A stretch of 24,750 nt of DNA from a virus. Its lineage: Duplodnaviria; Heunggongvirae; Uroviricota; Caudoviricetes. Below the pieces are notes generated by a model. That model was given only the letters and a program-made list of their open reading frames with translations, was not told where the DNA came from and searched no databases. Location of the stretch: the IMG/VR virus record IMGVR_UViG_3300033069_002010, one strand, 5' to 3'. A program made the position numbers and the translations under genes. Below, piece after piece: positions 1 to 22,443 of this stretch; position 1 is the first letter of the stretch, and the number at the start of each line of letters is the position of its first letter.

Positions 1-1029
1 ATGATAAAAGAGGAACAAGTTTTAGTGAAAATTAATCTTCGCAACATCTCACACTATCTGAACTTAGGATATTCTATTGATAATTTCAACATGAAGGAGG
101 GTAGGGAAATAATGGTTAAAGTCACCGATATCCCCAAGAAATCACATTTCAGGATAACCGCAATATGTGAGATATGTAAGAGCGAAAATAGCATAAAGTT
201 GTCTAAGTATTATGTGAATCTCGAAAGAAACAACAAAGGATACTATTCGTGCTTCAACTGTAAGAACATCGAAAAGGAAAAAACCTGTCTGAAAAAATTC
301 GGAGTAAAATCATTCTCACAGACGGACGAATTCAAAAATATAGACAGATCAGATTGGAATTATGAGGAGAGATTCGAGAAAGCTAAAAAGACTAGTCTTG
401 AAAGATATGGAGTCGAGCACTATTTCGAATTGGATTCGATGAAGGAGTTGAATAGAAAATGGATGTCATCAAGGGATTTTAAGGAAAAGTCAAGAAACAC
501 GATGTTGGAAAAATACGGTGTAGACAGTTACTCGAAAACAGAAGATTTCAAAAACACTATGGTTGGAAACAAAGATAAAATTGTCGCAAAGATTAAAAAG
601 ACTTTCATGGAAAAATATGGGGTTGAATGGACATCCAATCTGGAATGGGTTATGGAAAAAGTGAAATCGACAAGAGTCAAGAACGGGTATGATATCCCAG
701 ATGAACAACTGTCCGATTTCGATAAGTACAGGAAAAAGGTCAGAAACCTAACCAATAAATCAATAAAAAAACTGTACGAGGATTGGGATGGCACAGATTA
801 CTATGACAGTGAATACATAAAGGGAAATTTCTGCTACTCATCAACACACAGACTTTATCCTACCGTGGACCATAAAATATCAGTCCATTTCGGATTCATA
901 AACAACATTCCTTACGAGGAAATAGGTTCCATGGAAAATCTGTGTATAACAAAACGATGTATAAATTCATCAAAAAGACAGCTTATAGAAGAAGAATTCG
1001 TCAAGATGATCGACCCTCAAACCCCCTGA
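1..1029 (+). CDS. Putative free-standing HNH homing endonuclease with N-terminal Zn ribbon and four internal YGV repeats
   Basis: 342-aa ORF. CEIC...CFNC zinc ribbon; four (K/R)xTxxx(K/R)(Y/F)GV repeats; C-terminal TVDHKIS...ENLCITKRCINSSK matches the beta-beta-alpha-Me HNH/HNN pattern. Its 3' end overlaps the primase 3' end by 29 bp. Confidence 0.75.
   Translation: MIKEEQVLVKINLRNISHYLNLGYSIDNFNMKEGREIMVKVTDIPKKSHFRITAICEICKSENSIKLSKYYVNLERNNKGYYSCFNCKNIEKEKTCLKKFGVKSFSQTDEFKNIDRSDWNYEERFEKAKKTSLERYGVEHYFELDSMKELNRKWMSSRDFKEKSRNTMLEKYGVDSYSKTEDFKNTMVGNKDKIVAKIKKTFMEKYGVEWTSNLEWVMEKVKSTRVKNGYDIPDEQLSDFDKYRKKVRNLTNKSIKKLYEDWDGTDYYDSEYIKGNFCYSSTHRLYPTVDHKISVHFGFINNIPYEEIGSMENLCITKRCINSSKRQLIEEEFVKMIDPQTP
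277..660 (+). repeat. Four degenerate ~36-aa protein repeats inside the HNH gene
   Basis: EKTCLKKFGV (T95), KKTSLERYGV (T131), RNTMLEKYGV (T167), KKTFMEKYGV (T201); spacing 36, 36 and 34 aa. Confidence 0.8.
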
Positions 1030-5007: not shown

Positions 5008-5667
5008 ATGTCAAACGACTTTCTCAAATACGCGACCAAACACCATCGCATTTCATCAACCTATATCGATTCCTACAAAAGGAAAAACTCGACCCATCTG
5101 ATTCTGGACGACTCAGGAGAGGGAATAATGGTCGACATATTCTCAAAACTGATCGACAGCCGGATAATATTCCTTTCCAATGAGATGGAATCCGACATCT
5201 GCAACATAATCAAGGCCCAACTCCTTTATCTGGAACAGATGGATTCCGAAAGGGACATCAAAATCTACATCGACTGTCCAGGAGGATCGGTCTATTCGGG
5301 ATTGGGCCTTCTCGACACCATGGAATACGTCAGTCCCGACATTATGACCATCAACACGGGTTTGGCTGCATCGATGGCTGCCGTTCTTCTGGCATGCGGA
5401 ACCAAGGGAAAGAGAAAATCCCTGAAGAGGGCGAGAACCATGATACACCAGCCCCTTTCGGCCAGTTACGGATACTCACAGGCATCGGATATGGAAATCG
5501 AGGCCAAGGAGGTGAACTCACTGAAAAGGGAACTTTATGAGATACTGTCGGAAAGGACCGGACAGAAATTCGAAAGGATAGAAAAGGATTCGGACAGGGA
5601 CTATTGGATGAACTCAGAGGAGACCCTTAAATACGGACTGATCGACGAGATTGTCAGAAAAAAATAA
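5008..5667 (+). CDS. clpP: ATP-dependent Clp protease proteolytic subunit, phage-encoded, Bacteroidota-type N-terminus
   Basis: 219 aa. RIIFL, IYIDCPGGSV, GLAASMAA (catalytic Ser), MIHQP (His), QASDME (Asp), DRDYWM, YGLIDEI. N-terminal DFLKYATKH resembles the DFRKYATKH extension of Bacteroides ClpP. Confidence 0.95.
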   Translation: MSNDFLKYATKHHRISSTYIDSYKRKNSTHLILDDSGEGIMVDIFSKLIDSRIIFLSNEMESDICNIIKAQLLYLEQMDSERDIKIYIDCPGGSVYSGLGLLDTMEYVSPDIMTINTGLAASMAAVLLACGTKGKRKSLKRARTMIHQPLSASYGYSQASDMEIEAKEVNSLKRELYEILSERTGQKFERIEKDSDRDYWMNSEETLKYGLIDEIVRKK

Positions 5668-6435: not shown

Positions 6436-6582
6436 ATGAAATGTCAATATAGAAACTGTCAAAATGATTTCAGTGGAAGAAATAATAAGAAATATTGCTG
6501 CATAAAATGTAAAAGAAATGAAGCTAAATATAGAAAAAGAAATAAGATAAAATGCCTAAGAAATTGGAGTGGGAGGAAATAA
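6436..6582 (+). CDS. Small basic Cys-rich (putative Zn-finger) protein, 48 aa
   Basis: 3' part of track ORF 6151..6582, starting at ATG 6436: MKCQYRNC...KKYCCIKC followed by a basic helix; directly after an ATATATA motif; overlaps the next ORF by 31 nt. Confidence 0.55.
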   Translation: MKCQYRNCQNDFSGRNNKKYCCIKCKRNEAKYRKRNKIKCLRNWSGRK

Positions 6583-7448
6583 TAAAAAGATCATCCGATA
6601 TCCATAGTAATAAATATGAATATAGGTTTCAGATCCATAAAAACGGTAGAGATAAAATTTCAATCACATGTCCGACACATGGTGATTTTAATCAATCAAT
6701 AGAAGCGCATTTGAATGGGAGAGGTTGTCCCTCTTGCGCGGGCAATACAAAATATACGAAAGAAAGTCTTAAAATAAAGTTATTTTCAATCTACTCAGAC
6801 AAATATGAATATGATTTAGATGGATTTAAAAACAACGAAAGTATAATAAGGATCAAATGCGACTTACATGGTTGGTTTAAAATGAAGGTGGCTAACCACC
6901 TTCATGGTCAAAAATGTAAAAAATGTTCACATATGGTCTATTCAAATGATGATTTCAAAGAAATTTGTGATAGACTTCATAATGGATATTATGACTATAG
7001 TTTAGTTGATTACAGAAGCTATAAGTCAGTTATTAAAATAATATGCCCTAAACACGGAATTTTTGAGCAAAACGCAAGGACTCACTTTAGAGGACACGGA
7101 TGTCCTCTTTGTAAAGTATCAAAGGCGGAATTGAAAATTTTATCCTTTTTTAAAAGCAGAAATATTGATATTGAAAGACAGAAAAAATTCGACGGTTGTT
7201 TTAACAAGTACAAACTCCCATTCGATTTCTATCTAACTAATCAAAATATTTGCATCGAATATGATGGATATCAACACTTTCATCCAGTTGATTTTTTTGG
7301 TGGGGAAAAAAATCTCATCATACAAAAAAAGAGAGATACTATCAAAGATAGATTCTGTGATGAAAACAATATAAGACTATTTAGAATAAAATATGATGAG
7401 GACATCGATAAAAAATTAGAATCAATATTGAATGAAATTCAAATATGA
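6552..7448 (+). CDS. Putative free-standing homing endonuclease: three Zn-binding repeats plus Vsr/DUF559-like PD-(D/E)XK nuclease
   Basis: 298 aa. Three CxxHG..F......H..G..CxxC repeats (DUF723-like); C-terminal LPFDFYL...ICIEYDGYQHF...KDRFC..NNIRLFRIKY. Markedly AT-rich; overlaps the uvsW start by 17 bp. Confidence 0.8.
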   Translation: MPKKLEWEEIIKRSSDIHSNKYEYRFQIHKNGRDKISITCPTHGDFNQSIEAHLNGRGCPSCAGNTKYTKESLKIKLFSIYSDKYEYDLDGFKNNESIIRIKCDLHGWFKMKVANHLHGQKCKKCSHMVYSNDDFKEICDRLHNGYYDYSLVDYRSYKSVIKIICPKHGIFEQNARTHFRGHGCPLCKVSKAELKILSFFKSRNIDIERQKKFDGCFNKYKLPFDFYLTNQNICIEYDGYQHFHPVDFFGGEKNLIIQKKRDTIKDRFCDENNIRLFRIKYDEDIDKKLESILNEIQI

Positions 7449-9072
7449 CCCAGCTAGTGAAAAATTATTGGTATCAGAGGCATCTAGAATAGAATACCAT
7501 CAGATGAAAATATGGCTGACCAGAAAAATAAAAGGATGGAGGTTTTTACCAGCGGTGAAAATGGGAATATGGAATGGAGATGTATCTCATTTCGACAACG
7601 GGAAGGTGAATTTGGGCCTTTGGAAGGAATGCTGGAAGGCATGCAAGGAGATAGGTGTTCCCTTCAACATGGAAAACAAGGAAGACTTTCCGCTCAACAG
7701 GGAGGTGACCTTGGAATCGGTGACCGAATTCTGCAGGGACTTCTTCAGGCAGTATAAGATAAGGGACAAAAAAACGGGACAGTGGATTCCCTTCATGCCC
7801 TATGATTATCAGATCGAGACCGCCTTCAAAATCCTCAAAAACCGGTATTGCATGGCCGAGGTGGCCACATCGGGAGGAAAATCCCTGGTCATTTCGATAG
7901 TCATGTTCTACACCCTTAAAAACATCAATCCCGACGCGAAGTTCCTGATAATAGTTCCTTCGATAACACTGGTGACCCAGTTCTACGAAAACATCCTCGA
8001 ATACAACTACGGAACCAACTATCTCGAAAAATACGGGGACAAGATCGAATTCAGGAACCATCTTATAGACTCGATACTCGAAGAGGATCCCGACTACAAT
8101 CCCTGCCACATCAAGATGGAGGAAATTATGTCAGACAAGCCAAGAAAATGGACAGGACCATCCCAACCCAACGTGTTTGTCGGATGCTACCAGTCCCTTG
8201 AGAAATATCCGAAGGAATTCTTCCAGCAGTTCCATACTGTGGCATGTGACGAGGCTCACGGGGCCAAGGCCACCACACTTACCTCCATCCTGAAAAGGAC
8301 ATTCGGACACGCCTATAACCGGTTTGGGGTTTCAGGAACCTTTCCCACCGACGAGACACTTGAAATACTTACAATTCAGTCGGTTTTGGGACCAAAGGTG
8401 ACACAGATCGAGGCATCGACCCTTGTCAAGTCCGGAACGATAACACCGATGGAGGTTAAGGCGGTGATACTGAACCACGCGTCGGCGGGGATGAACGAAC
8501 AGCTTCAGCACATCAAAAAAAGCGGAGGAGGAGCCAACGCATACAGACTTGAGAACGAATACATACAACAGTCCAAAAAAAGACTTGAATTCCTAAAGAA
8601 GCTCGTGTCCAAATGTCAGGAAAACACACTCCTTCTGTTCAACACACTGGAATTCGGAACCAAAATTTTCGAGGAGCTGAAATCCGAAATAACCGACAAG
8701 GACTTTTACTACATCGCTGGTGAGATAAACAACAAGAACCGTGAGATAATCAAAAAGGAGATGGAAAAGACCGACGGAAGGGTCAAGGTCCTTGTGGCCT
8801 CATATGGAACTCTGAGCACGGGAGTGTCAATCAATGCCATATTCAACGTGATATTCGCAGATTCGGCCGGAAAATCCGAACAGAAAGTCATACAGTCGAT
8901 CGGAAGGGCTCTCAGAAAACACGACAAGAAAAAAGTGGCCACGATTTTCGACCTGGTCGACGTGTTTGACCCCAAGGAAATGAACAACATACTATACCGA
9001 CACTTTCAGGAAAGGGAAAAATTCTACAAGAACAGGAACTATCCCTATAAGGTTATAAAAATCAATCTATAG
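7432..9072 (+). CDS. uvsW: SF2 DNA/RNA helicase, T4 UvsW-like
   Basis: 546 aa. PYDYQ Q-motif, Walker A EVATSGGKS, IIVPSITLVTQ, DEAH, motif III GVSGT, motif V STGVSI, motif VI QSIGRALR; T4-like end YKVIKINL. Confidence 0.9.
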   Translation: MKFKYDPASEKLLVSEASRIEYHQMKIWLTRKIKGWRFLPAVKMGIWNGDVSHFDNGKVNLGLWKECWKACKEIGVPFNMENKEDFPLNREVTLESVTEFCRDFFRQYKIRDKKTGQWIPFMPYDYQIETAFKILKNRYCMAEVATSGGKSLVISIVMFYTLKNINPDAKFLIIVPSITLVTQFYENILEYNYGTNYLEKYGDKIEFRNHLIDSILEEDPDYNPCHIKMEEIMSDKPRKWTGPSQPNVFVGCYQSLEKYPKEFFQQFHTVACDEAHGAKATTLTSILKRTFGHAYNRFGVSGTFPTDETLEILTIQSVLGPKVTQIEASTLVKSGTITPMEVKAVILNHASAGMNEQLQHIKKSGGGANAYRLENEYIQQSKKRLEFLKKLVSKCQENTLLLFNTLEFGTKIFEELKSEITDKDFYYIAGEINNKNREIIKKEMEKTDGRVKVLVASYGTLSTGVSINAIFNVIFADSAGKSEQKVIQSIGRALRKHDKKKVATIFDLVDVFDPKEMNNILYRHFQEREKFYKNRNYPYKVIKINL

Positions 9073-10653
9073 GTCCCTCTCCAACATCAAGGTGTAGTGG
9101 AACTTGTTTCCATATCTTTTCTGGTGTTCCCTGCAGATTCTAAAAAAACTGTTCAATTCCGCTTCCGAGGAAAACACTTGACATCCTTCACTCCAATTAT
9201 TCACGGAACTTCCACCCGGGTATCCACGATGTATCAGCATTCCGACCCAAGCGGTGCCGCTTCCGGTGTATTTGATTATGTCACCCGGAGAATTGTCCCT
9301 GTAGAATTTCTGGGGACCGGTTGTCTTCATCGCAGGCTCCCCACAGTGTTCCCCGATCGTATAGATATTGAGGTATTGGGCTTCCATCAGGATGCCCATC
9401 CCGTTGTTCGGAGGGGTTCCTCTTCCCAACATGATGCTGGACTGCTTGACATTCGGGCTTTTTCCCGTGGGATCGCGTCTGAGTTTGCCATCCACAACCT
9501 GAGCCGAATAGAATCCAGGCATTGTGGTAATCTTATATTTCGAGGATCTCCAAGAACCCGCGTTGTCCCTGTATATCACATACAAATCGTCCTTGAAGGC
9601 GTTGGAGTACTTCATCCCCTCGTATTGTCTTCTTATTCCGACAATATTCACCTCAAACGGTTTTGTATTGATTACATATCCTTTCCTTTTCATGAGATCC
9701 AATATCTTGTTGACGTCGATATTTGTAGATGGTGTTACGTCAGGAGGGGGAACATTTCCCTCAAGCGGATTTAAAACGTTTCCGGACTCGTCGACATACG
9801 GGGTAAGCTGCCCGTCTGGCGTATCCGAAGAATTCCCGTCCTTGGACTGGAAATCGACACTTTCCGAAGTGATGGTCTGATTAGGACCGACCGTGGATTT
9901 CCAACTGTCTCCCAATTGTCCGTCGGCGGGTCTTTCCTGTTTCTGCACGAATTCGTTGTCGACCAGATTGACATGGTGAGATAGGAATTTCACATCCCTC
10001 AAAGCCTTATACCTGTTCAAAAGTTCAAGAAGAGCTGGACTCACCTGAACGGGAGCCCCCGCATTTCCTATGAAGGGACTTAGGGAATAACGATCCTGTC
10101 CGCTTGCCGGACCAAGAAGGTTATCGACAAACTCGTCAAACCAATCCATGAAGTGATCCCCGAGTATAGCCTTTTGGTTTGCTGTAGGAGTCCCTATGTT
10201 GACGTGGCTGAAGTTGTCCTTCAGGTTCAGATTTATGTCGTTTTTGGTTATGTTTATGTTATTGAGCTTGTAATCGATTTTAAGACCCTCACCGTCATTG
10301 GAATAGATTTGAGTCTTGTGGTCGAACATAAGGGCTCTCATTGAGGTGTAATCCTTTCCTGACAGTTCCGAAAGCTTTCTCTCCAAATTGATGTTGTAAT
10401 GCTCGGCGAATATGTATTCGGGCTTGTAAGGGTTTCCCTCGTCAAAAACCACCGAAACCACCTTGCCGACTTCGGGAAGGATAAACTGGTTCCCGTTCAG
10501 ATCCTTCCATGGGGTCGCCCAAGGCAGATCCTCTTTTGGGATGCTGTCAAATATGTTCAGGACCCTTACTCGACATCTTCCAAGCTTTTTCGGATCCTCG
10601 TTGTCCTCAACCGTCCCTATGAATATTTTCGATTTCAGTTCTTCTCTTGTCAT
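9067..10653 (-). CDS. gp5: Baseplate central spike protein (gp5-like OB fold) fused to a YkuD/L,D-transpeptidase-like domain
   Basis: 528 aa. N-terminal IGTVEDNEDPKKLGRCRVRV...LPWA...PEVGKVVSVVFDEGNPYKPEY is the gp5/VgrG OB signature. C-terminal NIVGIR...TTMPG...IH475...S-E-G-C491 has the 16-residue His-Cys spacing of YkuD enzymes. Confidence 0.8.
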   Translation of the reverse strand: MTREELKSKIFIGTVEDNEDPKKLGRCRVRVLNIFDSIPKEDLPWATPWKDLNGNQFILPEVGKVVSVVFDEGNPYKPEYIFAEHYNINLERKLSELSGKDYTSMRALMFDHKTQIYSNDGEGLKIDYKLNNINITKNDINLNLKDNFSHVNIGTPTANQKAILGDHFMDWFDEFVDNLLGPASGQDRYSLSPFIGNAGAPVQVSPALLELLNRYKALRDVKFLSHHVNLVDNEFVQKQERPADGQLGDSWKSTVGPNQTITSESVDFQSKDGNSSDTPDGQLTPYVDESGNVLNPLEGNVPPPDVTPSTNIDVNKILDLMKRKGYVINTKPFEVNIVGIRRQYEGMKYSNAFKDDLYVIYRDNAGSWRSSKYKITTMPGFYSAQVVDGKLRRDPTGKSPNVKQSSIMLGRGTPPNNGMGILMEAQYLNIYTIGEHCGEPAMKTTGPQKFYRDNSPGDIIKYTGSGTAWVGMLIHRGYPGGSSVNNWSEGCQVFSSEAELNSFFRICREHQKRYGNKFHYTLMLERDL

Positions 10654-12643: not shown

Positions 12644-15643
12644 TTATATCAGATAAGATTTGCTTTCCGACTTTCTTTTCCTAAGACCGTCGACATACTG
12701 TATCTGGTTGAAATTTCTTGCCCACAGGGGCTTAAGTTCGAACAGTCTCACCGATCTCGGATCAAGATTCCCTCCCCAATAAAGACCAACCGAAATGCCG
12801 ATTCTGCCTACCTGGTCATAAAGCGGGGAGGCGGTCTGGAGAATCCCATCCACATAAACCCCAACATCGAAGGACATTCCGAAATTGTAGACGGAATATC
12901 CGGCCTGTTCCGTAGTTTTTCCCTCGGAATAGAGAAGGATCTGTTCATCATAGGTAACAAGTCCCTTGGTGACTTTTACGGTTATACCAGAAGCGGCGGA
13001 TTTACTCACCAACTGTCTCGCCAACGACTGAACCTCAGGTATAAGATTGGATATGAACTGTTCGCTTTGATTGTCGGCAGGCGGGGTGTTGTCAACGGCG
13101 AAATTCACCGGGACGGTGGTAACCCCTGAATCGGCAGGAGGACTCGGATCAGGATTTTCAGTGATAGTATCGTTGGATGTCTGTTGTCCCGGTTCGGATT
13201 TTGGAGTCTGTTCGGCCTCCTGCTGAAATTCCTCGGGAGACAGTTCGAGTTCCCTTTTGATCAGTCGAATCACTTGGGTGAATTTCCTGCCGTCAAAAAC
13301 AAACTTGATGTCGATCACAAGCCATTCTCCCGTGAGTCGGTTGTTGATGTGCGGAGCAGATGGTGTGGAAGCCTGATTTGATATGAACACGAATATCTTC
13401 TGAAACTTGTAGATATTGTAATTGGGATTACCCATCTCAACCTCTATACATACCTTCTGAAGTTCCGAAATGTTTCGGTTGTTCTGAATAGACGAATATT
13501 GGTAGTTCGAATGCATATTGTCGGTATCCATCTTACCGGCATAGATTATCTGGGTATTCTCGTTGAAAAAAGATTCGTCCTGTGGAGCTCCCTTCAGAAT
13601 TATGCTCTTGTCACCCTTGCTGGTTATCGAGTCGATGTCGAATATCAGAAAATCCTTTGACAGCTCGTCGTAGAATTTGACCTTGCTCAAGTATCCCTCC
13701 TGGATCGATATTTTCGTCGAATTGTTGATTACCCTGTAGTTGGAGAAGTAGATGTTGGAGTTATTCATCGAAAAATCGTTTGTCAAATAGAGTTTCGAAA
13801 CCTTTTCCTTATCGTCTATCTTTGATATCTCCTCAACTCCCGTATTAGCCACTCCCAATTCCTCCTTGATGTTCCTACCCAATTCCTTTTCGATATCCAC
13901 GAAATTGATATTGTAATAATAGTCGATGTAATAAAGCAAAAAAGTCTGGTCGGACAAATATGACGAGTCTATCACAGTGTTCATGAAATCCAAATTCCTC
14001 TGTCCCGTATTTATCCACGTCATCGAATCATTGGTGTCATCAACGTTGGTGTTTAGACCCATTCCGACTTCCTTACAGAAATCCTCAAACACCTTAAAGC
14101 TGGTCATGTTCGGATATGACTTGAATCTCTTGGTGTAAAGCTGGTTGACGTCTATGATCCCATCCAAAGAAAGATTAGGCCCATCGAATGAAAACTTTAC
14201 TATCTTGAATTGGAGAAGGATCGGCTTAAGCTGATCGGATCTCGGATTCAGAAATACCTCAATCTTAGAATCGTCAAGCGGAAAAGACTTGTCCCTCATA
14301 AGGTTGAGGGTATCCCTGAAAACAAGTTTGAGGGTTGGGAGATTGTTGCTTATGTAAAGTTGGAAAAACTGTATGTCATTAACCTCAATCTGATATGCGT
14401 TGTACCATACGAACGGAAAATTTCCCAGACTCTGGGCGATTTCGGCCTGGACATCCTTCTGTGGAGGGATGTTCATTCTAATCGGATCGGCCTTTATCTT
14501 GGCCGGAATAACATTGGTAAGGGTGGTTATCTTTCCCTGCGTGTTCTTGTTGTTGCCTCCCTTATCCTGTGTCGGATCCTCTCCGGTGCGCTGGGAACGG
14601 CTCTCATCCTGTGTCGAATCGTCCGGATACGAGTTGGATGTCGGATTTGCCGATACTACCTCACCCACATCGTTTGACTCTATCAGCGATAGTTGCTGCA
14701 TCACCCTGGCGTAGAACTGATCGGCGTATTTCTGACCACCGGAAATCCGACGACCCATGTTTATTATGTCCTTTCTCAGATTGGCGTCTGATTGGTTGGA
14801 ATCTATCAAACTGTATCTTCCGTTTTTGGACGAATGTATCCAAACAGCATAGTTGGCGATTATAAAATCGGTATTCCTGAAAAGATCATCCCATTGCTGA
14901 TTTGTGGAAATCGTACATATCGCATCCACGTCGGATCCGTAGGCGGCCCAAGCCGATTTCACGGATGCGATGGTCGGATTGTTTCCCGAATAGCCCAATA
15001 TGTATCGGACAATATCCTTATATCCTTCCCTTGATGTGGTCTGTATGAATCCCCTTCCTCGAAACTTGACGAAATCCGCCTCATATATGAACGTGTTGGT
15101 CCTACCGAGCCTGTCGATTTCCGAATCGACGTTTCCCGAAAAACCGGTTGGAAATGTCGTACCCTTCCACACATTATTGGTCGTGTCCTTCAAAACGCTT
15201 CCAAAAGGTTTTGTGATATGTGCATTCTTGAACTTGGAATCACGGAAAAGGTCATAGGCCGATTTGTTGGCGACACCGTCGGACGGATCGTTGTAGGATC
15301 TTTTCACTCCTGGTATCTTGTCGAATGCGTATGATATACCCGGATGTCCCTTCGATCCCATCCCCTCCGAAACGGGAGAAAAAGATCCGCCTGTCTCGTT
15401 TATGATGATAGAATTCAGGCAAAGGAATTCAATCAGGTTGAAAGTGTCCTTGTTAAGAAGCAATTTGGCCCTGCTCCAAACACTATACCAGTTTGAAGGA
15501 CTCTCAATTCTTTTTCCTCCCCAATTTTCCCTGCCGGCGATTTTCCGGTTGAACCAATCGGGGAAATCCTTGGCTCCGAATTTCTTGAAAAATTCGTTTA
15601 TCTCATTCGAGTTGCTGAATGTGTTGTTTCTGTAGTTTGGCAT
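12644..15643 (-). CDS. Baseplate hub-like (gp27-type) protein with N-terminal GH19 lysozyme-like domain and C-terminal degenerate M15 peptidase domain
   Basis: 999 aa. GH19: NE83TGG...SE93, KFRGRGFIQTT, GRRISGG. The central ~400 aa ends RLTGEWLVIDIKF...IRLIKREL, a hub-like C-terminus (inferred from pattern and position after gp53). C-terminal LIPEV..LAR.L......GITVKVTKG...EQ..LY..G...S.YNFG.SFD...VG..G...GL.WGG resembles CwlK/Ply500-type M15. Confidence 0.7.
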   Translation of the reverse strand: MPNYRNNTFSNSNEINEFFKKFGAKDFPDWFNRKIAGRENWGGKRIESPSNWYSVWSRAKLLLNKDTFNLIEFLCLNSIIINETGGSFSPVSEGMGSKGHPGISYAFDKIPGVKRSYNDPSDGVANKSAYDLFRDSKFKNAHITKPFGSVLKDTTNNVWKGTTFPTGFSGNVDSEIDRLGRTNTFIYEADFVKFRGRGFIQTTSREGYKDIVRYILGYSGNNPTIASVKSAWAAYGSDVDAICTISTNQQWDDLFRNTDFIIANYAVWIHSSKNGRYSLIDSNQSDANLRKDIINMGRRISGGQKYADQFYARVMQQLSLIESNDVGEVVSANPTSNSYPDDSTQDESRSQRTGEDPTQDKGGNNKNTQGKITTLTNVIPAKIKADPIRMNIPPQKDVQAEIAQSLGNFPFVWYNAYQIEVNDIQFFQLYISNNLPTLKLVFRDTLNLMRDKSFPLDDSKIEVFLNPRSDQLKPILLQFKIVKFSFDGPNLSLDGIIDVNQLYTKRFKSYPNMTSFKVFEDFCKEVGMGLNTNVDDTNDSMTWINTGQRNLDFMNTVIDSSYLSDQTFLLYYIDYYYNINFVDIEKELGRNIKEELGVANTGVEEISKIDDKEKVSKLYLTNDFSMNNSNIYFSNYRVINNSTKISIQEGYLSKVKFYDELSKDFLIFDIDSITSKGDKSIILKGAPQDESFFNENTQIIYAGKMDTDNMHSNYQYSSIQNNRNISELQKVCIEVEMGNPNYNIYKFQKIFVFISNQASTPSAPHINNRLTGEWLVIDIKFVFDGRKFTQVIRLIKRELELSPEEFQQEAEQTPKSEPGQQTSNDTITENPDPSPPADSGVTTVPVNFAVDNTPPADNQSEQFISNLIPEVQSLARQLVSKSAASGITVKVTKGLVTYDEQILLYSEGKTTEQAGYSVYNFGMSFDVGVYVDGILQTASPLYDQVGRIGISVGLYWGGNLDPRSVRLFELKPLWARNFNQIQYVDGLRKRKSESKSYLI

Positions 15644-16113: not shown

Positions 16114-18162
16114 TTATATTTTTGTGAGTCCCTTCGACTGTAGGGCCAATTCAAATTCGGAATTCGCTTGCTGCTTGACATAGTCGACAAGAACCTGGTA
16201 GTTGCTCTCACCGGTTTGTTTGTCTCCCCCGTCCGAGGTATCCCATCTTCCGACATATGTGTTCGGCTGTACCGCGCTTGAAACTGACCAGTTTATGGAG
16301 ACATTTTGCTGGCTGTACTTTCCGCTGTTCAGAATCTGTCCTCCCAACCAACTGCCGCTCACATAACCAGGAACGGGCGATTCGGCAGCCGGCTGAATTC
16401 CGACGGTCGGTGCCGGAGGTGGTGTCGGAGGCGGTATACTAACCGTTGTGTTTGGAATGGTAGATACGGAAGATTTAGAAGGATGAACCTCACTTGTGTT
16501 TCCAATCGACGGATTTGTGACAGGATCACCGATTACCGGAGTAGAAGTGGGATCGTTATAGGAATACCAATCGTTTCCGGGCCCGTTTATTGAGTAGAAA
16601 GGATCATTGACTAGCGGATTGTAGGTGTATACGGCTTCCGCGTTTTGCAGTGTTGTCCTGTTTACGACCACACTCTGGCTCTGTCCGTTCTGGTTGAGGA
16701 TCGTGGTTGAGACGGTTCCGGATTTGATTGAAAAGGTTGCCGAAATTGATTTCTCAACAAATGACTCCTTAATCCTGGCATATGATCTTCCCCTACCGGT
16801 ATTGAACCTTTGGAATATTTCCTGTGCTCCCAACGGCCTTGCGTTCGTAAGACTGAACGAAAATTTGATTGACGACGGTAGATCGTTAAATGTAAGGGTT
16901 TTACCCAACTCAACCTTGACCGTTTCACAAAGCATGTCACCCGAACAGAAAATCGGTTTTTTCGGATTGCCGATAGTCACATGCCACGGGGCGGAAGGAC
17001 TTCCGCTGAGAGCGTTCAGAACCCCGAGAAGCTTCACCTTGTACTTGCTGACGACATGACCGACGGTCGAGGCGAAAGCCTTTTGGATTTGATCGATAAT
17101 CTGGTTGGTATTGGGAAACTGATCGTTTCTTGGTGGGTTTATCAGAGCATTTATAATCTTTGCTCCTATATCTGATATGGCCTCCACCAAGGCGGAAACG
17201 AATTGGATTATGGATGCGGCTATTGCCCTCAAATCCCCACTGATGAGGTTTTTGATGAACTCACTCCCGCTGTTCTGAAACTTGGTGTTGAACTGGAACA
17301 CCGACTCGGAGGTTCCGAAGGTGAGAGCGTTCTGTATGATATCAAGGTAAACCAAGGAAGGATCCAACCCGTTTATGAATTTCTGCTCATACTCGACGTT
17401 CATGGTGACCGTGATGGTGCATTTCAACCCGGATCCGGCCGTATTCTTGGATACGAGGGATCTCTGTTTGGCCTGTCTGATCAGATTTGGGTTTCCCAAA
17501 GGTGAGTTTCCGATTCCGAAGTCATCCTGAAGACCGAGTTTTTTCAGTATCTCATACTGAATTCCCTCCATGAAACCTGGCATCGGAAGCATATCCATTC
17601 CACCCGCCGCGAAATTGCCAAGCTGGCTTCCCCCAATCAGATCCTTGACGTCACCACCAAGTTCATTGAGTATGCTGGTGAAGCTCGCTTCTGCGTCTGT
17701 CCAGCTCTCACCCCAATCTGCTGATAACCATTCCTGATCCTCGGGAACCCAGGATACCAAAGTCGCCATCGGAACATCCTTCACCGTCGAGAGATCGCTG
17801 TGGACCCCACTCTGAAATCTTCTGGCGACTATAAGTCTGTTGTTGGGGAAGACCCCAACGTTTTTGAGGTAGGCAAAATCTGCGAATGTCAGTTTCATCG
17901 ACGGTATACCACTTGTATACTCGACTATGGAAGCAATACTCACGTCATTGGTGTCATCATTGTGGATAGACTGAGCGTTTGTCCCGATTTTGGGTATCGC
18001 GTCCTTAATCTCAGGATTAGAATTGTTGACCCCAGGGAATGGAATGAACTGATTAGAATTTCCGTCGTTTCCGACTCCGAAAATCGATTTTATACGAAGG
18101 GAATTGATTACCTGATACTGGGAAAGTCTCTGGCTAGGTCCTAAGTTTAACGGGGATGGCAT
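16114..18162 (-). CDS. Putative baseplate/tail-tube initiator (gp48/gp54-like) with Pro-rich linker and extra C-terminal domain
   Basis: 682 aa; first gene of the baseplate run. The region WHVTIGNPKKPIF..GDM.CE.V.VE.G..L.FNDLP..I...F.L..ARP looks like a tube-fold C-terminus; PPPTPPPAP linker. The family call is inference from pattern and synteny. Confidence 0.5.
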   Translation of the reverse strand: MPSPLNLGPSQRLSQYQVINSLRIKSIFGVGNDGNSNQFIPFPGVNNSNPEIKDAIPKIGTNAQSIHNDDTNDVSIASIVEYTSGIPSMKLTFADFAYLKNVGVFPNNRLIVARRFQSGVHSDLSTVKDVPMATLVSWVPEDQEWLSADWGESWTDAEASFTSILNELGGDVKDLIGGSQLGNFAAGGMDMLPMPGFMEGIQYEILKKLGLQDDFGIGNSPLGNPNLIRQAKQRSLVSKNTAGSGLKCTITVTMNVEYEQKFINGLDPSLVYLDIIQNALTFGTSESVFQFNTKFQNSGSEFIKNLISGDLRAIAASIIQFVSALVEAISDIGAKIINALINPPRNDQFPNTNQIIDQIQKAFASTVGHVVSKYKVKLLGVLNALSGSPSAPWHVTIGNPKKPIFCSGDMLCETVKVELGKTLTFNDLPSSIKFSFSLTNARPLGAQEIFQRFNTGRGRSYARIKESFVEKSISATFSIKSGTVSTTILNQNGQSQSVVVNRTTLQNAEAVYTYNPLVNDPFYSINGPGNDWYSYNDPTSTPVIGDPVTNPSIGNTSEVHPSKSSVSTIPNTTVSIPPPTPPPAPTVGIQPAAESPVPGYVSGSWLGGQILNSGKYSQQNVSINWSVSSAVQPNTYVGRWDTSDGGDKQTGESNYQVLVDYVKQQANSEFELALQSKGLTKI

Positions 18163-18677: not shown

Positions 18678-20492
18678 TCACTCGAATTTTCCTATAATCT
18701 GGTTCTGTTTTATGGTCAACGAAAATCCACTCCCGTTCTCGGATTTTTTCGGCTCGAATTTCGAGTCAAACCCTGCCTTTATGAACTGGTCTTTTGAAAC
18801 AGCCTTTATCTTACCATCAGACGTCTTCAGAAAATAGTCAAAACTCTCGTTGGCGACGTCACCCGCCAATTCGACACCGGATTTGTATTCGACCTCCTTC
18901 CCCGATTTAATATCATCTATCTTGGACTTGAGAATGGTGATAAAGTCATCGGCGAACATTTTCATGACATCGGTGTAGTTCTCGGTTCCGAAATTCTTGG
19001 ACAGAAGATCCCTCCTTGAGGAGAAATAGTTCAACCCCTGTATGTTGGTTATCGAAGGGTGTCCCCCGGAATTGACGGTTATGATGTCATACATCGAAAT
19101 CGTAATCAGTCCCATCATCTGCTTTTCCCTATCGGACCATTTCTCATAAGGCTTGTCCATACACTCCTTCAGGATTCCGATCACGACGGCGGTCTTTGCC
19201 GAAGTCTCGTCATCTAGATTAAGGAACTCCGTGGTGAAATCACCCGACTTTCTGTTCGGCATCCACTTTATGGTCTTGGAATAGAATGCCTTCAAATCGG
19301 CGTAGTTGAATCCGATCGGCTGATAATCTTCCCCGTAATGGGTTCTCTTTTTCGAAATCTCGTCCTCGCTTATCCTTTTGATGTCGGATATCGGAACGTT
19401 GAATTCCTTCAATATGTCCACATACTTGCCCAACATTTCCTTGGTTATGGCCCCAAGATCGATCTTCGACAGGACCTTTTCCTTGAAGGGATTGCAGGAA
19501 ACCTGAATCAGGCCCATAGGGAAAATGGTGCAGACAAAATCGGCTGCGGGATTGTTCTTGAACACAACATACCGGTCGTAAGAACCCGGCTCGAAAACAG
19601 ATCCTATGCCGTATTGCTTTATTATCTTATATGTCTCGTCGAATTCGACATCCTTGCTTCCCACCCTCGACTTAACGTATTTTTCAAGATTGGATTTAAG
19701 AACATCGAGAGTCGCCAATTTTTTAGGGACATTATGCTTTCTTAGAGACTTGTCATATTCGAGGGATATAGCCGTATCCATGTAATGTTTTATGTTCATG
19801 AACATCGATATCAGAGAAGGTGAAGAATCCAAAGTCAGACACTCCAAGAAATTCTTGTTGATGTGCTTTCTCTTCCCGTCAAGACTGGTTCCGCTGATTC
19901 TCTTGTTTTTGAACACGAGAAGAAGCCTGTTGACCACAAATCCCATCATGAAACGGTTTTTCTCACCCGATAGTTTCGGATCCACCGAAAAAACCACATT
20001 CTGAATGTCATCGGGGGTTATCCCGTATTTTAGGAAGTCGGCCGAATCGACGGTCTTGATAAGATCTATGTCCGATTTCATGAAAACGTCTGAAGGGGAT
20101 ATCTCACCCGATATTATCTCGACGTTTGACCTTGAAGGCTTTGCGTAAGCCGCTCCCGAAGGTTCTCCCGTCTGACTGGTGTGGTGATCGGTGGCTATGG
20201 TGAACATGGTCTTGAAATGGGCGAAATCGACAAGAACGGCCATAGAATCGGGTCTTTTCTGTCTTATGGCGTATTCCATCCCACCGTATTGGGTGATGTG
20301 ACAATCAACCATTTTCATTCCGTATCTTTCCAGATAGGATTTCATTGCCAACGCCGAGGTAACACCATCCAGATCTTGGTGAAACCAGATCTCGAAATTG
20401 TTTCCGTGCTCGGCCTTGTGTGAGGCTATCAGTTTGGAGATGTTCCTGAGACCCACTTCCTCATTCAAAAAAGAATTGTATTTCTTTATCAT
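18678..20492 (-). CDS. DHH/DHHA1-family phosphoesterase with CTS-like N-terminus
   Basis: 604 aa from ATG 20492 (the track uses TTG 20498). FHQDLDGVTSA, VLVDFAH, TDHH, SRSN, VDSAD and a C-terminal SGGH. Starts MIKKYNSFLNEE. Confidence 0.85.
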   Translation of the reverse strand: MIKKYNSFLNEEVGLRNISKLIASHKAEHGNNFEIWFHQDLDGVTSALAMKSYLERYGMKMVDCHITQYGGMEYAIRQKRPDSMAVLVDFAHFKTMFTIATDHHTSQTGEPSGAAYAKPSRSNVEIISGEISPSDVFMKSDIDLIKTVDSADFLKYGITPDDIQNVVFSVDPKLSGEKNRFMMGFVVNRLLLVFKNKRISGTSLDGKRKHINKNFLECLTLDSSPSLISMFMNIKHYMDTAISLEYDKSLRKHNVPKKLATLDVLKSNLEKYVKSRVGSKDVEFDETYKIIKQYGIGSVFEPGSYDRYVVFKNNPAADFVCTIFPMGLIQVSCNPFKEKVLSKIDLGAITKEMLGKYVDILKEFNVPISDIKRISEDEISKKRTHYGEDYQPIGFNYADLKAFYSKTIKWMPNRKSGDFTTEFLNLDDETSAKTAVVIGILKECMDKPYEKWSDREKQMMGLITISMYDIITVNSGGHPSITNIQGLNYFSSRRDLLSKNFGTENYTDVMKMFADDFITILKSKIDDIKSGKEVEYKSGVELAGDVANESFDYFLKTSDGKIKAVSKDQFIKAGFDSKFEPKKSENGSGFSLTIKQNQIIGKFE

Positions 20493-20507: not shown

Positions 20508-21050
20508 TTATTCCTCGTCAAGGTCAATTTCATTATCGTCATCCTCGTCATCGAAGATATCATCATCAATATGGTCTTCCTCGTCATGTTCAAGTTCACC
20601 TTCATCGTCAAATTCATCCTCGAATTCCTCATCATCATAATCATCATCCTCATCATCGGATTCGAGTTCGCCGCTCTTCATGGCGTCAATCGTGTCCTGG
20701 GTGACATTGTAATCAACCCAACTCTGTATCTGCTCACCCAGATCAAATCCCAAATCCGAAAGATCGTCGAATATGACTTTCATATCGGTGAAATTCGATG
20801 TGGAAAGATATGACTGAAGATTCGGTATAGATTCCCTCATATGCTCAAGGAACATCTGGTAGTCAACCGATATCTTTTCCTCATCACCATCGGGGGTCTC
20901 CACCCAAACGTTGAAATGGTCCACGTCTCCGTGACTGTGCTTCCTGAAATACTCGGTCTCATCCTCGGGACTTCCGAAATCCCATCTGACAACCTTAAAT
21001 TGGGGACTTTCAAATCCCAGATAATCGTTGAATTCTAAAATATGTCTCAT
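20508..21050 (-). CDS. Hypothetical protein with CTS-like start and long Asp/Glu tail ending in Glu-Glu
   Basis: 180 aa; MRHILEFNDY start; last ~50 aa mostly D/E; ends EIDLDEE; 7-nt gap to the amidoligase gene. Confidence 0.8.
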   Translation of the reverse strand: MRHILEFNDYLGFESPQFKVVRWDFGSPEDETEYFRKHSHGDVDHFNVWVETPDGDEEKISVDYQMFLEHMRESIPNLQSYLSTSNFTDMKVIFDDLSDLGFDLGEQIQSWVDYNVTQDTIDAMKSGELESDDEDDDYDDEEFEDEFDDEGELEHDEEDHIDDDIFDDEDDDNEIDLDEE

Positions 21051-21057
21051 ATTTGTC

Positions 21058-22443
21058 TTATTTTTTAAATCCTTTTATGACGCCCAAATCCTTTTTCCCA
21101 TCCCTTTCCTCTTCAAAACTTGTATCGAAGAAGCTGTCTGTTTCCGAAACCACGTTGGTCTCCGAACTTATGTTTGCGTAAGGCCCGAGCTTTCCACCCC
21201 TGAACACCCCACCAATCATATCCCCGTTTAGATAACCGTTCATGAAGAAGCAGTTTGTCATTTGAGTGGCCTCAACATTGCAGCTGAGAATCTTCGAATC
21301 ATTGATGTCACATCCGTGTATCTTGGATTTTATTATCTGGGAATTGGAGACCTGACAATTGACCAGTCCGCAATTCTCGAATATGCCGTCAGACATCACA
21401 CAATTGATGAAGTCAAAATCCTTGATGTTGTGTGTCGATTTTACGTTTGCGTCAATAACCTCTATTTTCTGGGTAGCTGTCACATAGTTTATTATGCAAT
21501 CCTTCAGGGAATCGGTTGAATCTATCAGGACATGCAGCTTGGGGAAAATCTTATCATAGTATGCGTTGACAACGTCATAATTGTAATATTGGTCTATCTG
21601 AAGGGATATTGTCGGGAAATCAACAATAAAGTTGTCGTATTTTGAGAAATTCTTGAAGTTGCTGATGTTGAGATCAAGGTATTTCTCCAACTCGTCAATA
21701 TCCTGGTCGTTGAAACCGGTGTCTATGGAATTGTGGACATCTATGACAAACCTGTCCATGAAATACAATATCTGTCCTATGTTTTTCTCATAGTCCTTAC
21801 CACCGATGTATCGGAACTCCAGTCTCTGCGAATCTTTCGGATTGTTGACATGTAGGAAATTGACCCCGTAGTACTTGTCATCAGGCATCCTTATGTTGTT
21901 TTTGACCACGTCGATCGGAATGTTGTTGAAATCGTATTCCTTGTATGGGATTACCTTTTTGACGGTCTTGGCGTAAACGTTGTTCTTTCTCGAAGGATAA
22001 ACCCTGTAAATCTCTTCCTCATCAAGATTGAGAATAAGCTTGAGCATATTCAGGTCGTTAAGGTCCTTGTCGGCATCACCCAAAAAGGATATGTTGAAAT
22101 GGATTGACGCTTTTTCGGTGGTATATCCGTATTGCTGTATGAATTTCAGGATTTTTATCAGATAAAACTTGGCCTCATAATATGACATCGGCCCTGTAAC
22201 CAATTCCACCATGTTCGAACCTCCAGAAAGATCGGGTTCTATCTTGAAGTTCTGGGAATCTGGCTTGAAATCGGAGTGATATTTCTTGAAACCCCAAACC
22301 TTTACGGGAGCAAGATAAAGATTGAGCATTTCCAATGTCTTGTAATAGGACATTTCCCTCATGAAAAACTCAAATTCAAAGCCCACTTGTGACTTTTTCA
22401 AAATATCATTGCTGTTGATGAACGTTTCCGAATATTTCTTCAT
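21058..22443 (-). CDS. Putative amidoligase (COOH-NH2 ligase, Amidoligase_2-like) with C-terminal pentapeptide-repeat beta-helix
   Basis: 461 aa. GFEFE, KIEPDLS, ELVTGPM, SIHFNIS, KYYGVNF, LEFRYIGG; then about 13 five-residue repeats (FENCG LVNCQ VSNSQ IIKSK IHGCD INDSK ILSCN...). Confidence 0.75.
   Translation of the reverse strand: MKKYSETFINSNDILKKSQVGFEFEFFMREMSYYKTLEMLNLYLAPVKVWGFKKYHSDFKPDSQNFKIEPDLSGGSNMVELVTGPMSYYEAKFYLIKILKFIQQYGYTTEKASIHFNISFLGDADKDLNDLNMLKLILNLDEEEIYRVYPSRKNNVYAKTVKKVIPYKEYDFNNIPIDVVKNNIRMPDDKYYGVNFLHVNNPKDSQRLEFRYIGGKDYEKNIGQILYFMDRFVIDVHNSIDTGFNDQDIDELEKYLDLNISNFKNFSKYDNFIVDFPTISLQIDQYYNYDVVNAYYDKIFPKLHVLIDSTDSLKDCIINYVTATQKIEVIDANVKSTHNIKDFDFINCVMSDGIFENCGLVNCQVSNSQIIKSKIHGCDINDSKILSCNVEATQMTNCFFMNGYLNGDMIGGVFRGGKLGPYANISSETNVVSETDSFFDTSFEEERDGKKDLGVIKGFKK

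Follow-up and report, generated by a model that had tools for sequence, protein, structure and literature searches.

The stand-alone DHH/DHHA1 enzymes, such as PggH, PAP phosphatase, TM1595, NrnA, DhhP/Pde2 and Rv2837c/CdnP, share a two-lobed fold of a DHH and a DHHA1 lobe with four motifs and a GGH signature. DHH phosphodiesterases of jumbo phages were predicted to counter nucleotide signalling (PMC7824862), and a 2026 preprint surveyed viral DHH enzymes, assayed them on cGAMP and described one phage DHH protein that blocked 3'3'-cGAMP signalling (bioRxiv 10.64898/2026.07.21.739742). Mimivirus R106 and Ph-DHH-3B, both treated in that preprint, belong to the viral DHH/DHHA1 proteins, for which degradation of cyclic nucleotides has been predicted and for a few observed. 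Given these two reports, a phage DHH protein as an anti-signalling factor is not new as a general idea. The internal proteins of phage T4 are diverse anti-defence proteins that have only the capsid targeting sequence (CTS) in common (PMC3012670). Here we describe a 604-amino acid (aa) DHH/DHHA1 protein with a CTS-like N-terminal tag, encoded on a 24,750-nucleotide stretch of viral DNA (the window) from IMG/VR record IMGVR_UViG_3300033069_002010. We predict that it is a phage-specific phosphodiesterase that serves as delivered effector-type cargo, and give this reading as a whole a probability of about 0.38.

The coding sequence occupies 18678..20492 on the minus strand, with an ATG start and its stop codon at 18678-18680. 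An in-frame TTG is located two codons 5' of this ATG, but every homologue starts at Met instead. The source record is 92,898 bp long with a CheckV completeness of 13%, so the full genome is expected to be about 700 kb. A tblastn search of 50,697 phage records found matches to the DHH protein only in two uncultured genomes of 634,780 bp and 642,428 bp. Bacteroidetes hosts were predicted for two of the largest genomes of the Mahaphage clade (PMC7162821). The present fragment belongs to a Mahaphage-type huge phage, and its nearest complete relatives are predicted Bacteroidetes phages, in agreement with the initial annotation, made from the sequence alone, in which a probable Bacteroidota phage was proposed.

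The conservation of the catalytic motifs was judged on an alignment of 61 homologues that are 24-75% identical to the query. In motif I (H38-Q-D40-L-D42-G43, the metal ligands; 20364..20381, minus strand, as for all residues given here), D42 and G43 were invariant and H38 and D40 were conserved in at least 90% of the sequences. Motif II (D89; 20226..20228), motif III (D102-H103-H104; 20181..20189) and motif IV (D149 within DSADF; 20046..20048) were invariant. The DHHA1 signature S475-G476-G477-H478 (19059..19070) had an invariant GGH and a serine kept in at least 90% of the homologues. The presence of all DHH motifs and a DHHA1-like GGH, as first annotated, was thus confirmed. Between motif IV and the GGH lies an expanded stretch (residues 150-474; 19071..20045), whose insertion boundaries are inferred. 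Five residues of this stretch, R307, Q330, N334, K372 and E376, are invariant in the family and are candidate substrate-pocket residues.

The curated profiles recognised this protein poorly. The Pfam DHH hidden Markov model (HMM; PF01368) scored 24.7 bits over residues 35-124, under its cut-off of 28.1, and Pfam DHHA1 (PF02272) had no match anywhere in the genome. A PHROG search with the DHH protein matched no family, and a sequence-profile search of the PDB, based on the alignment of 61 sequences, returned nothing significant, the best DHH match being PggH with an E value of 1.3. Because these HMMs were sub-threshold or silent, the DHH/DHHA1 assignment rests on the motifs and on an AlphaFold model. 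Judged by both, the window protein clearly belongs to the DHH/DHHA1 phosphodiesterases; it is intact, although very divergent, and is probably active as a metal-dependent phosphoesterase on short nucleotide substrates.

The AlphaFold2 model built on the 61-sequence alignment had a predicted local distance difference test score (pLDDT) of 92.6 and a predicted template modelling score of 0.87. Foldseek matched it with probability 1.0 to DhhP, TM1595, GdpP, RecJ and PggH, all of the two-lobed fold. In VIA-align, the best match was PggH of V. cholerae (7D62; Z 16.8, root mean square deviation (rmsd) 4.7, 272 residues aligned), followed by the DHH-type PAP phosphatase of M. thermolithotrophicus (8A8K; Z 16.1, rmsd 4.0, 283 aligned). 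TM1595 (Z about 13, rmsd 4.0, 260 aligned), B. fragilis NrnA (Z about 12, rmsd 4.7, 269 aligned) and Rv2837c (Z 11.8) came next. RecJ and archaeal RecJ/Cdc45 matched with Z 10-11.6, RecJ itself with Z about 11 (rmsd 4.2-4.3, about 300-310 aligned). The model therefore supports a fold nearest to the small-substrate phosphodiesterases, with RecJ further off. NrN, the SAM-AMP-degrading enzyme of a type III CRISPR system of B. fragilis (SAM, S-adenosylmethionine) that the initial annotation had cited, was not its closest structural relative, with Z 10 (rmsd 4.4, 234 aligned) against 16.8 for PggH.

The same structural matches bear on the size of the protein. The 272 aligned residues of the PggH chain (294 residues) were spread over query positions 32-525, and the DHHA1 lobes of the solved enzymes aligned to the model through residue 525-529. 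TM1595 has a chain of about 320-333 aa with D80 and D154 as motifs II and IV (PDB titles), a spacing that matches D89 and D149 of the query; the roughly 200 extra residues are thus placed between motif IV and the GGH. The long insertions noted at first sight are therefore real, the protein being with 604 aa about twice as long as the small enzymes. The model also shows a beta-rich C-terminal domain of 75 aa (residues 530-604; 18681..18905, minus strand), which is kept across the megaphage subgroup of the family. With this domain, the N-terminal tag and its doubled size, the window protein differs from the compact NrnA/PggH-type architecture of about 300-340 aa with no extra domains. Its family also differs from the stand-alone enzymes in being divergent in sequence and found on phage contigs only.

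The protein starts with the 11-residue tag MIKKYNSFLNE (residues 1-11; 20460..20492, minus strand), whose end is a candidate L-x-E cleavage site. The first ten residues are modelled as disordered (pLDDT 44). In the T4 record, IPII and IPIII start with MKTYQEFIAE and IPI with MKTFKEFTST. Positions 4 and 7 of the T4 CTS serve targeting and positions 8 and 10 processing; cleavage by gp21 follows L/I-x-E (PMC9026906). As Y5, F8, L9 and E11 of the tag are spaced identically to Y4, F7, I8 and E10 of IPII and IPIII, the CTS match that had been reported for the DHH protein is real at the level of sequence comparison and extends to the positions that are functional in T4. The pattern M-[IL]-[KR]-K-Y-x-x-F...[LIV]-x-E-E-x-G was present in 104 of 117 close homologues but in only 11 of 92 distant representatives. 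Most of the distant representatives with no tag start with M-(0-5 residues)-E-S-G-[IL]-R-N, which is where the window protein would begin once cut after Glu11. Since the distant homologues lack the tag and start at the predicted cleavage point, the peptide is a separable, lineage-specific addition. Tag-like starts were found on 16 of the 117 open reading frames (ORFs) of this genome and in 1.1% of internal 11-residue windows, an enrichment that is only approximate because the pattern was set after seeing the data.

A protease of the gp21 type (Peptidase_S77) was matched once in each of four other DHH-bearing genomes (G001, G002, G003 and LR756502); 14 control genomes gave no match. When the first 200 residues of the G001 and G002 proteins were aligned with the 238-aa protein of G003 and T4 gp21, the NRNxRxY motif, the histidine of E..HP and the serine of SSRG were conserved. 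The corresponding ORFs lie on the minus strand at L089:1291-1980, L090:1225-1914 and L088:1369-2085, with His and Ser motifs that align with T4 gp21. These conserved motifs indicate that a Glu-specific head maturation system of the T4 type is present in the clade. In phages of 436-597 kb, the S77 domain occupies the first 200 residues of ORFs of about 700 aa, and in a 317-kb phage it is a stand-alone protein of 238 aa. The window itself encodes a full-length ClpP (5008-5667, plus strand; PF00574, 229 bits), 13 kb from the DHH gene. Its PHROG label is 'head maturation protease', but it was rejected as a gp21-type enzyme, since it is a ClpP of the cellular type. This ClpP could process or degrade tagged proteins.

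A second leader, M-x-[KR]-I-I-[IL]-[ST]-E-x-Q-[LF], was seen on unrelated neighbours of DHH genes in the loci of a distant subgroup of the family (L026-L079). Its bearers include a lysozyme, a 404-aa protein weakly similar to phiKZ_IP and a 586-aa protein (for example L030:6382-7596:+, L075:7341-7928:+ and L057:511-2271:+). The DHH protein of this subgroup carries a short form of the leader, MKKLIKESG. The second leader may be the equivalent of the megaphage tag in the distant lineage.

In relatives of the window protein, unrelated modules were found at the position of its 75-aa tail, on cores that are 50-84% identical. These modules were Peptidase_M23 (P0139, 84 bits), PG_binding_1 (P0153 and P0149), PG_binding_1 with GH19 (P0135), an OmpA-like domain (P0095), a domain of the DUF3293/S-AdoMet-lyase family (P0197, P0186 and P0202), SET (P0146, with a 67-member Atlas cluster), GNAT (P0155) and a complete extracytoplasmic function (ECF) sigma factor (P0140). 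The GH19 and M23 forms shared 84% of their core residues. At least 16 tail types were counted overall, and one 75-aa tail was common to the megaphage subgroup. Three of the fusions were confirmed on contigs as single ORFs under translation table 11. The joining of a DHH N-terminus to FtsH in P0195 is probably a chimera and was not counted as a fusion. The ECF sigma factor, with regions 2 and 4, was fused to the DHH C-terminus on four independent contigs (L085:6001-7923:+); if delivered, such a protein would be a virion-borne sigma factor.

Fusion to a murein hydrolase is a mark of injected polyvalent proteins (PMC5512222). The DHH relatives likewise join one core to murein hydrolases, peptidoglycan (PG)-binding domains, SAM-lyase-like domains, GNAT, SET and a sigma factor. 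Like polyvalent proteins, which have at least two disparate effector domains, P0135, P0139, P0140, P0146, P0155 and P0197 carry such a combination, but the window protein has no second recognisable effector domain. The full text of PMC5512222 makes no mention of 'DHH'.

The word-indexed search recovered more than 2,700 homologues among the best 8,000 candidates scored, on contigs of up to 591 kb. When 1.84 billion cluster representatives were searched exhaustively, only 267 clusters were found at E <=0.001; a family with this few clusters is insular and does not reach to cellular NrnA or RecJ. The family members among the ESM Atlas structural neighbours were 100% viral, and the family was seen only on phage contigs. 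In four near-complete large genomes (317, 436, 597 and 642 kb) the gene was single-copy and also the sole match to the DHH HMM. It is a conserved gene and not a variable accessory one. In the 436-kb genome (G002:C1:348636-350621, L022), the DHH match was split in two inside a single open frame of 742 aa, with about 98 unmatched residues between the parts and slightly overlapping profile ranges; an element inserted here or a local duplication may account for the split.

The DHH gene is part of a co-directional array on the minus strand. It is preceded by genes for a Dam-type methylase, a 461-aa Amidoligase_2-like protein and a 180-aa tagged protein, and it is followed by ORFs of 130, 682, 153, 999 and 648 aa and then by a gp5-like baseplate hub. 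The 180-aa ORF (20508..21050, minus strand) lies 15 nucleotides upstream of the DHH start and has the tag-like start MRHILEFNDY; its slot is taken by variable small ORFs in related loci. The 461-aa protein (21058..22443, minus strand) joins the Amidoligase_2-like part (Atlas feature score 0.97) to a pentapeptide-repeat region. It has a tag-like start, MKKYSETF, and its repeat region gives a weak NCBIfam match to HalA, a Hailong effector. The DHH gene and the 461-aa gene are neighbours in 23 related megaphage loci, and in about 20 of these the block of 130-, 682- and 153-aa ORFs is also near, in either orientation. The 682-aa neighbour (16114-18162), considered as a tail sheath, gave a model with a pLDDT of only 45. 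The 999-aa protein (12644-15643, minus strand), encoded by the fourth gene downstream of DHH, has an endolysin-like segment at residues 864-959 (phrog_2649), and the gp5-like hub (9067-10653, minus strand), encoded by the sixth, has an OB domain (PF04717). Together they probably form a cell-puncturing module.

The Bacteroidota -7 motif TAnnTTTG occurred 15 times in the window against 15.5 expected, with none upstream of DHH on its strand, and scans for sigma-70 promoters and terminators were at chance level. The window also encodes a primase and a UvsW-like DEAD/ResIII helicase (7432-9072, plus strand). This helicase gene adjoins that of an HNH homing endonuclease (6552-7448, plus strand; phrog_559, E 1e-65), and a DUF7487 homing-endonuclease-like ORF stands at the start of the window (1-1029, plus strand).

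The distant subgroup has about 40% identity and cores of 430-500 aa. Its DHH genes have as neighbours APS kinase, a cytidylyltransferase-like protein, a DNA methylase, DUF5856, DUF192, NUDIX, cobalamin adenosyltransferase, thymidylate synthase and NrdD/G. The 404-aa protein found there has a weak, sub-threshold match to a phiKZ internal head protein. Among the 14 loci that carry a Phage_lysozyme gene, most have it directly upstream of DHH. In T4 (65,416-67,490, L092), the order is nudE-e-ipIII-ipII, with lysozyme e and the NUDIX gene nudE beside the internal-protein genes. A distant locus, L082:7166-11179, has a lysozyme, then a DHH fusion, DUF192 and NUDIX, and recalls the T4 order. T4 and L082 may share a conserved 'internal protein locus' layout. 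The PAP phosphatase match and the APS kinase nearby in the distant subgroup had pointed to a link with 3'-phosphoadenosine 5'-phosphosulfate (PAPS) and PAP; this link was rejected for the present phage, as neither the fragment nor three megaphage genomes contain APS kinase.

The mechanism that we propose starts from a two-lobed metal-dependent phosphoesterase core that has all catalytic residues, with the fold taken from the model and a predicted activity. By its fold, its likely substrates would be of the class of pGpG, pApA, pAp, nanoRNA and cyclic dinucleotides. By analogy with the T4 CTS, the 11-residue peptide would load the protein into the prohead, and a gp21-type prohead protease would cut after Glu11, so that the mature protein would start where the untagged homologues start. 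The enzyme would then enter the host along with the DNA and destroy one of its nucleotides; the most plausible target would be a signal of defence or physiology, in the form of a linear or cyclic di- or oligonucleotide. Loading through the tag, trimming after Glu11 and delivery with the DNA have, on the T4 analogy, slightly less than an even chance of being right. That the substrate is an immune second messenger is speculative and rather doubtful. The varied tails on one core, the SAM-lyase-like fusion and the gp21-type protease in related genomes fit a delivered host-takeover or counter-defence protein.

The likeness to T4 covers several points. The tag shares the Y..F-[IL]-x-E spacing with IPI, IPII, IPIII and Alt, which are CTS-targeted, processed by gp21 and injected; it stands on unrelated proteins of one genome, and a gp21-type protease is encoded in related genomes. 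Moreover, ipII and ipIII adjoin lysozyme and NUDIX genes, as does the DHH gene in some relatives. The present system differs in that its packaging and cleavage are predicted and its cargo would be a 600-aa enzyme and not a small basic protein, Alt being nearer in this respect.

A number of observations weigh against delivery as cargo. The tag is present on about one ORF in eight, far more commonly than in T4, and its function is deduced solely from T4. The gp21-type HMM matches in three megaphage genomes fell short of the Pfam cut-off (about 23 bits), and the present fragment, which is 13% complete, yielded no gp21-type protease. In place of an effector tail, the window protein has just the conserved 75-aa domain. 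The neighbours in the distant subgroup (NUDIX, APS kinase, thymidylate synthase) are genes of nucleotide or auxiliary metabolism, and a widely conserved, single-copy, sole DHH enzyme in four large genomes also fits a housekeeping role.

Such a role is the main rival, and we consider it unlikely overall. The protein would be a nanoRNase or pAp phosphatase of the cytoplasm that turns RNA fragments of host and phage, or pAp, into mononucleotides for the replication of a huge genome, and the peptide would be unrelated to packaging. The nearest solved structures (PggH, PAP phosphatase, TM1595 and NrnA), the single-copy status in the genomes of 317-642 kb, the more than 2,700 homologues and the NUDIX, APS kinase, thymidylate synthase and NrdD/G genes of the distant group agree with it. 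It leaves unexplained the hypervariable effector and murein-hydrolase tails, the separable N-terminal tag and the roughly 200 extra residues, and the absence of APS kinase from the three megaphage genomes and this fragment also speaks against it. The two other explanations are weaker. The enzyme could be an early-expressed, unpackaged phosphodiesterase for counter-defence or host takeover, whose peptide would serve recognition by a ClpP-type protease, localisation or translation control. The ClpP gene 13 kb away and the unusually common tag (16 of 117 ORFs) are in line with this, and Acb1 and Apyc1 are expressed and not injected, according to work cited in PMC12255297. On the other side, no host-type TAnnTTTG lies upstream on the DHH strand, the co-directional array runs on into the baseplate-hub genes, the murein-hydrolase and PG-binding fusions of relatives better fit delivery through the wall, and the tag matches the functional positions of the T4 CTS in a clade with a gp21-type protease. 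We regard an unpackaged enzyme as quite improbable.

The least probable explanation, to which we give little credence, is a single-stranded DNA exonuclease or replisome factor of the RecJ/GAN/Cdc45 type that acts in recombination-dependent replication. RecJ was the sole NCBIfam match of the protein, the structures of RecJ, archaeal RecJ/GAN and Cdc45 align at Z 9-11 over 300-325 residues, and the primase and UvsW-like helicase are encoded in the same window. Yet the RecJ equivalog TIGR00644 gave 21.4 bits (cut-off 396.9), with coverage of motifs I-III only, hhalign to E. coli RecJ aligned just 13 residues around DHH (motif III), and no RecJ OB domain was detected. The small-substrate enzymes also scored 5-6 Z units higher, and the C-terminal domain is not kept across the whole family. 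Membership in RecJ, named earlier as one alternative, thus fails on the equivalog score, the hhalign result and the missing RecJ_OB.

The strongest form of the cargo reading is that the DHH core is the head of a polymorphic family of capsid-delivered effectors, loaded by means of a T4-like CTS in Mahaphage-type megaphages and then injected, and that it erases Bacteroidota immune signals (SAM-AMP, cyclic oligoadenylates or the dinucleotides of cyclic oligonucleotide-based antiphage signalling systems) from the first seconds of infection. In this full form it is a long shot. The initial annotation had proposed the protein as a candidate injected eraser of such signals, a reading that is borne out in part: an intact DHH/DHHA1 enzyme of the small-substrate class and a separable CTS-like peptide were recovered, but NrN is not the nearest relative and the gene is not accessory. 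NrN, which has a DHH-family fold likewise and comes from B. fragilis, a host of the phylum predicted for the nearest complete relatives of this phage, is a CRISPR-encoded enzyme of 250 aa, unlike the 604-aa phage protein. Relatives of SAM lyase are the other enzyme class that destroys SAM-AMP (PMC12255297), and some members of the DHH family carry a DUF3293/SAM-lyase-family domain of this type, which the window protein lacks.

The published viral DHH phosphodiesterases are NrnA/CdnP-like proteins of about 300 aa, often with close cellular relatives. The clade of the window protein is much larger in size, has no detectable cellular members, and has a tag and tails that point to delivery. What appears to be new here is a phage-only, enlarged clade with a CTS-like tag, polymorphic effector tails and a recurrent link to wall hydrolases. 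If the enzyme is an ordinary nanoRNase, the finding shrinks to a divergent housekeeping gene.

The phage enzymes already known to destroy immune nucleotides, among them Acb1, Apyc1, the viral ring nucleases and, as a candidate SAM-AMP lyase, AcrIIIB4, are produced once infection has begun. A capsid-carried enzyme would act before the first host signal arises, and an injected eraser of immune signals, if true, would be the first virion-packaged anti-signalling enzyme. With sigma factor, SET, GNAT, SAM-lyase-like and wall-hydrolase fusions on one core, the family also forms a natural catalogue of candidate host-takeover modules. It thereby offers a handle on two open questions of megaphage biology, namely the role of their common N-terminal tag and the cargo of their very large heads.

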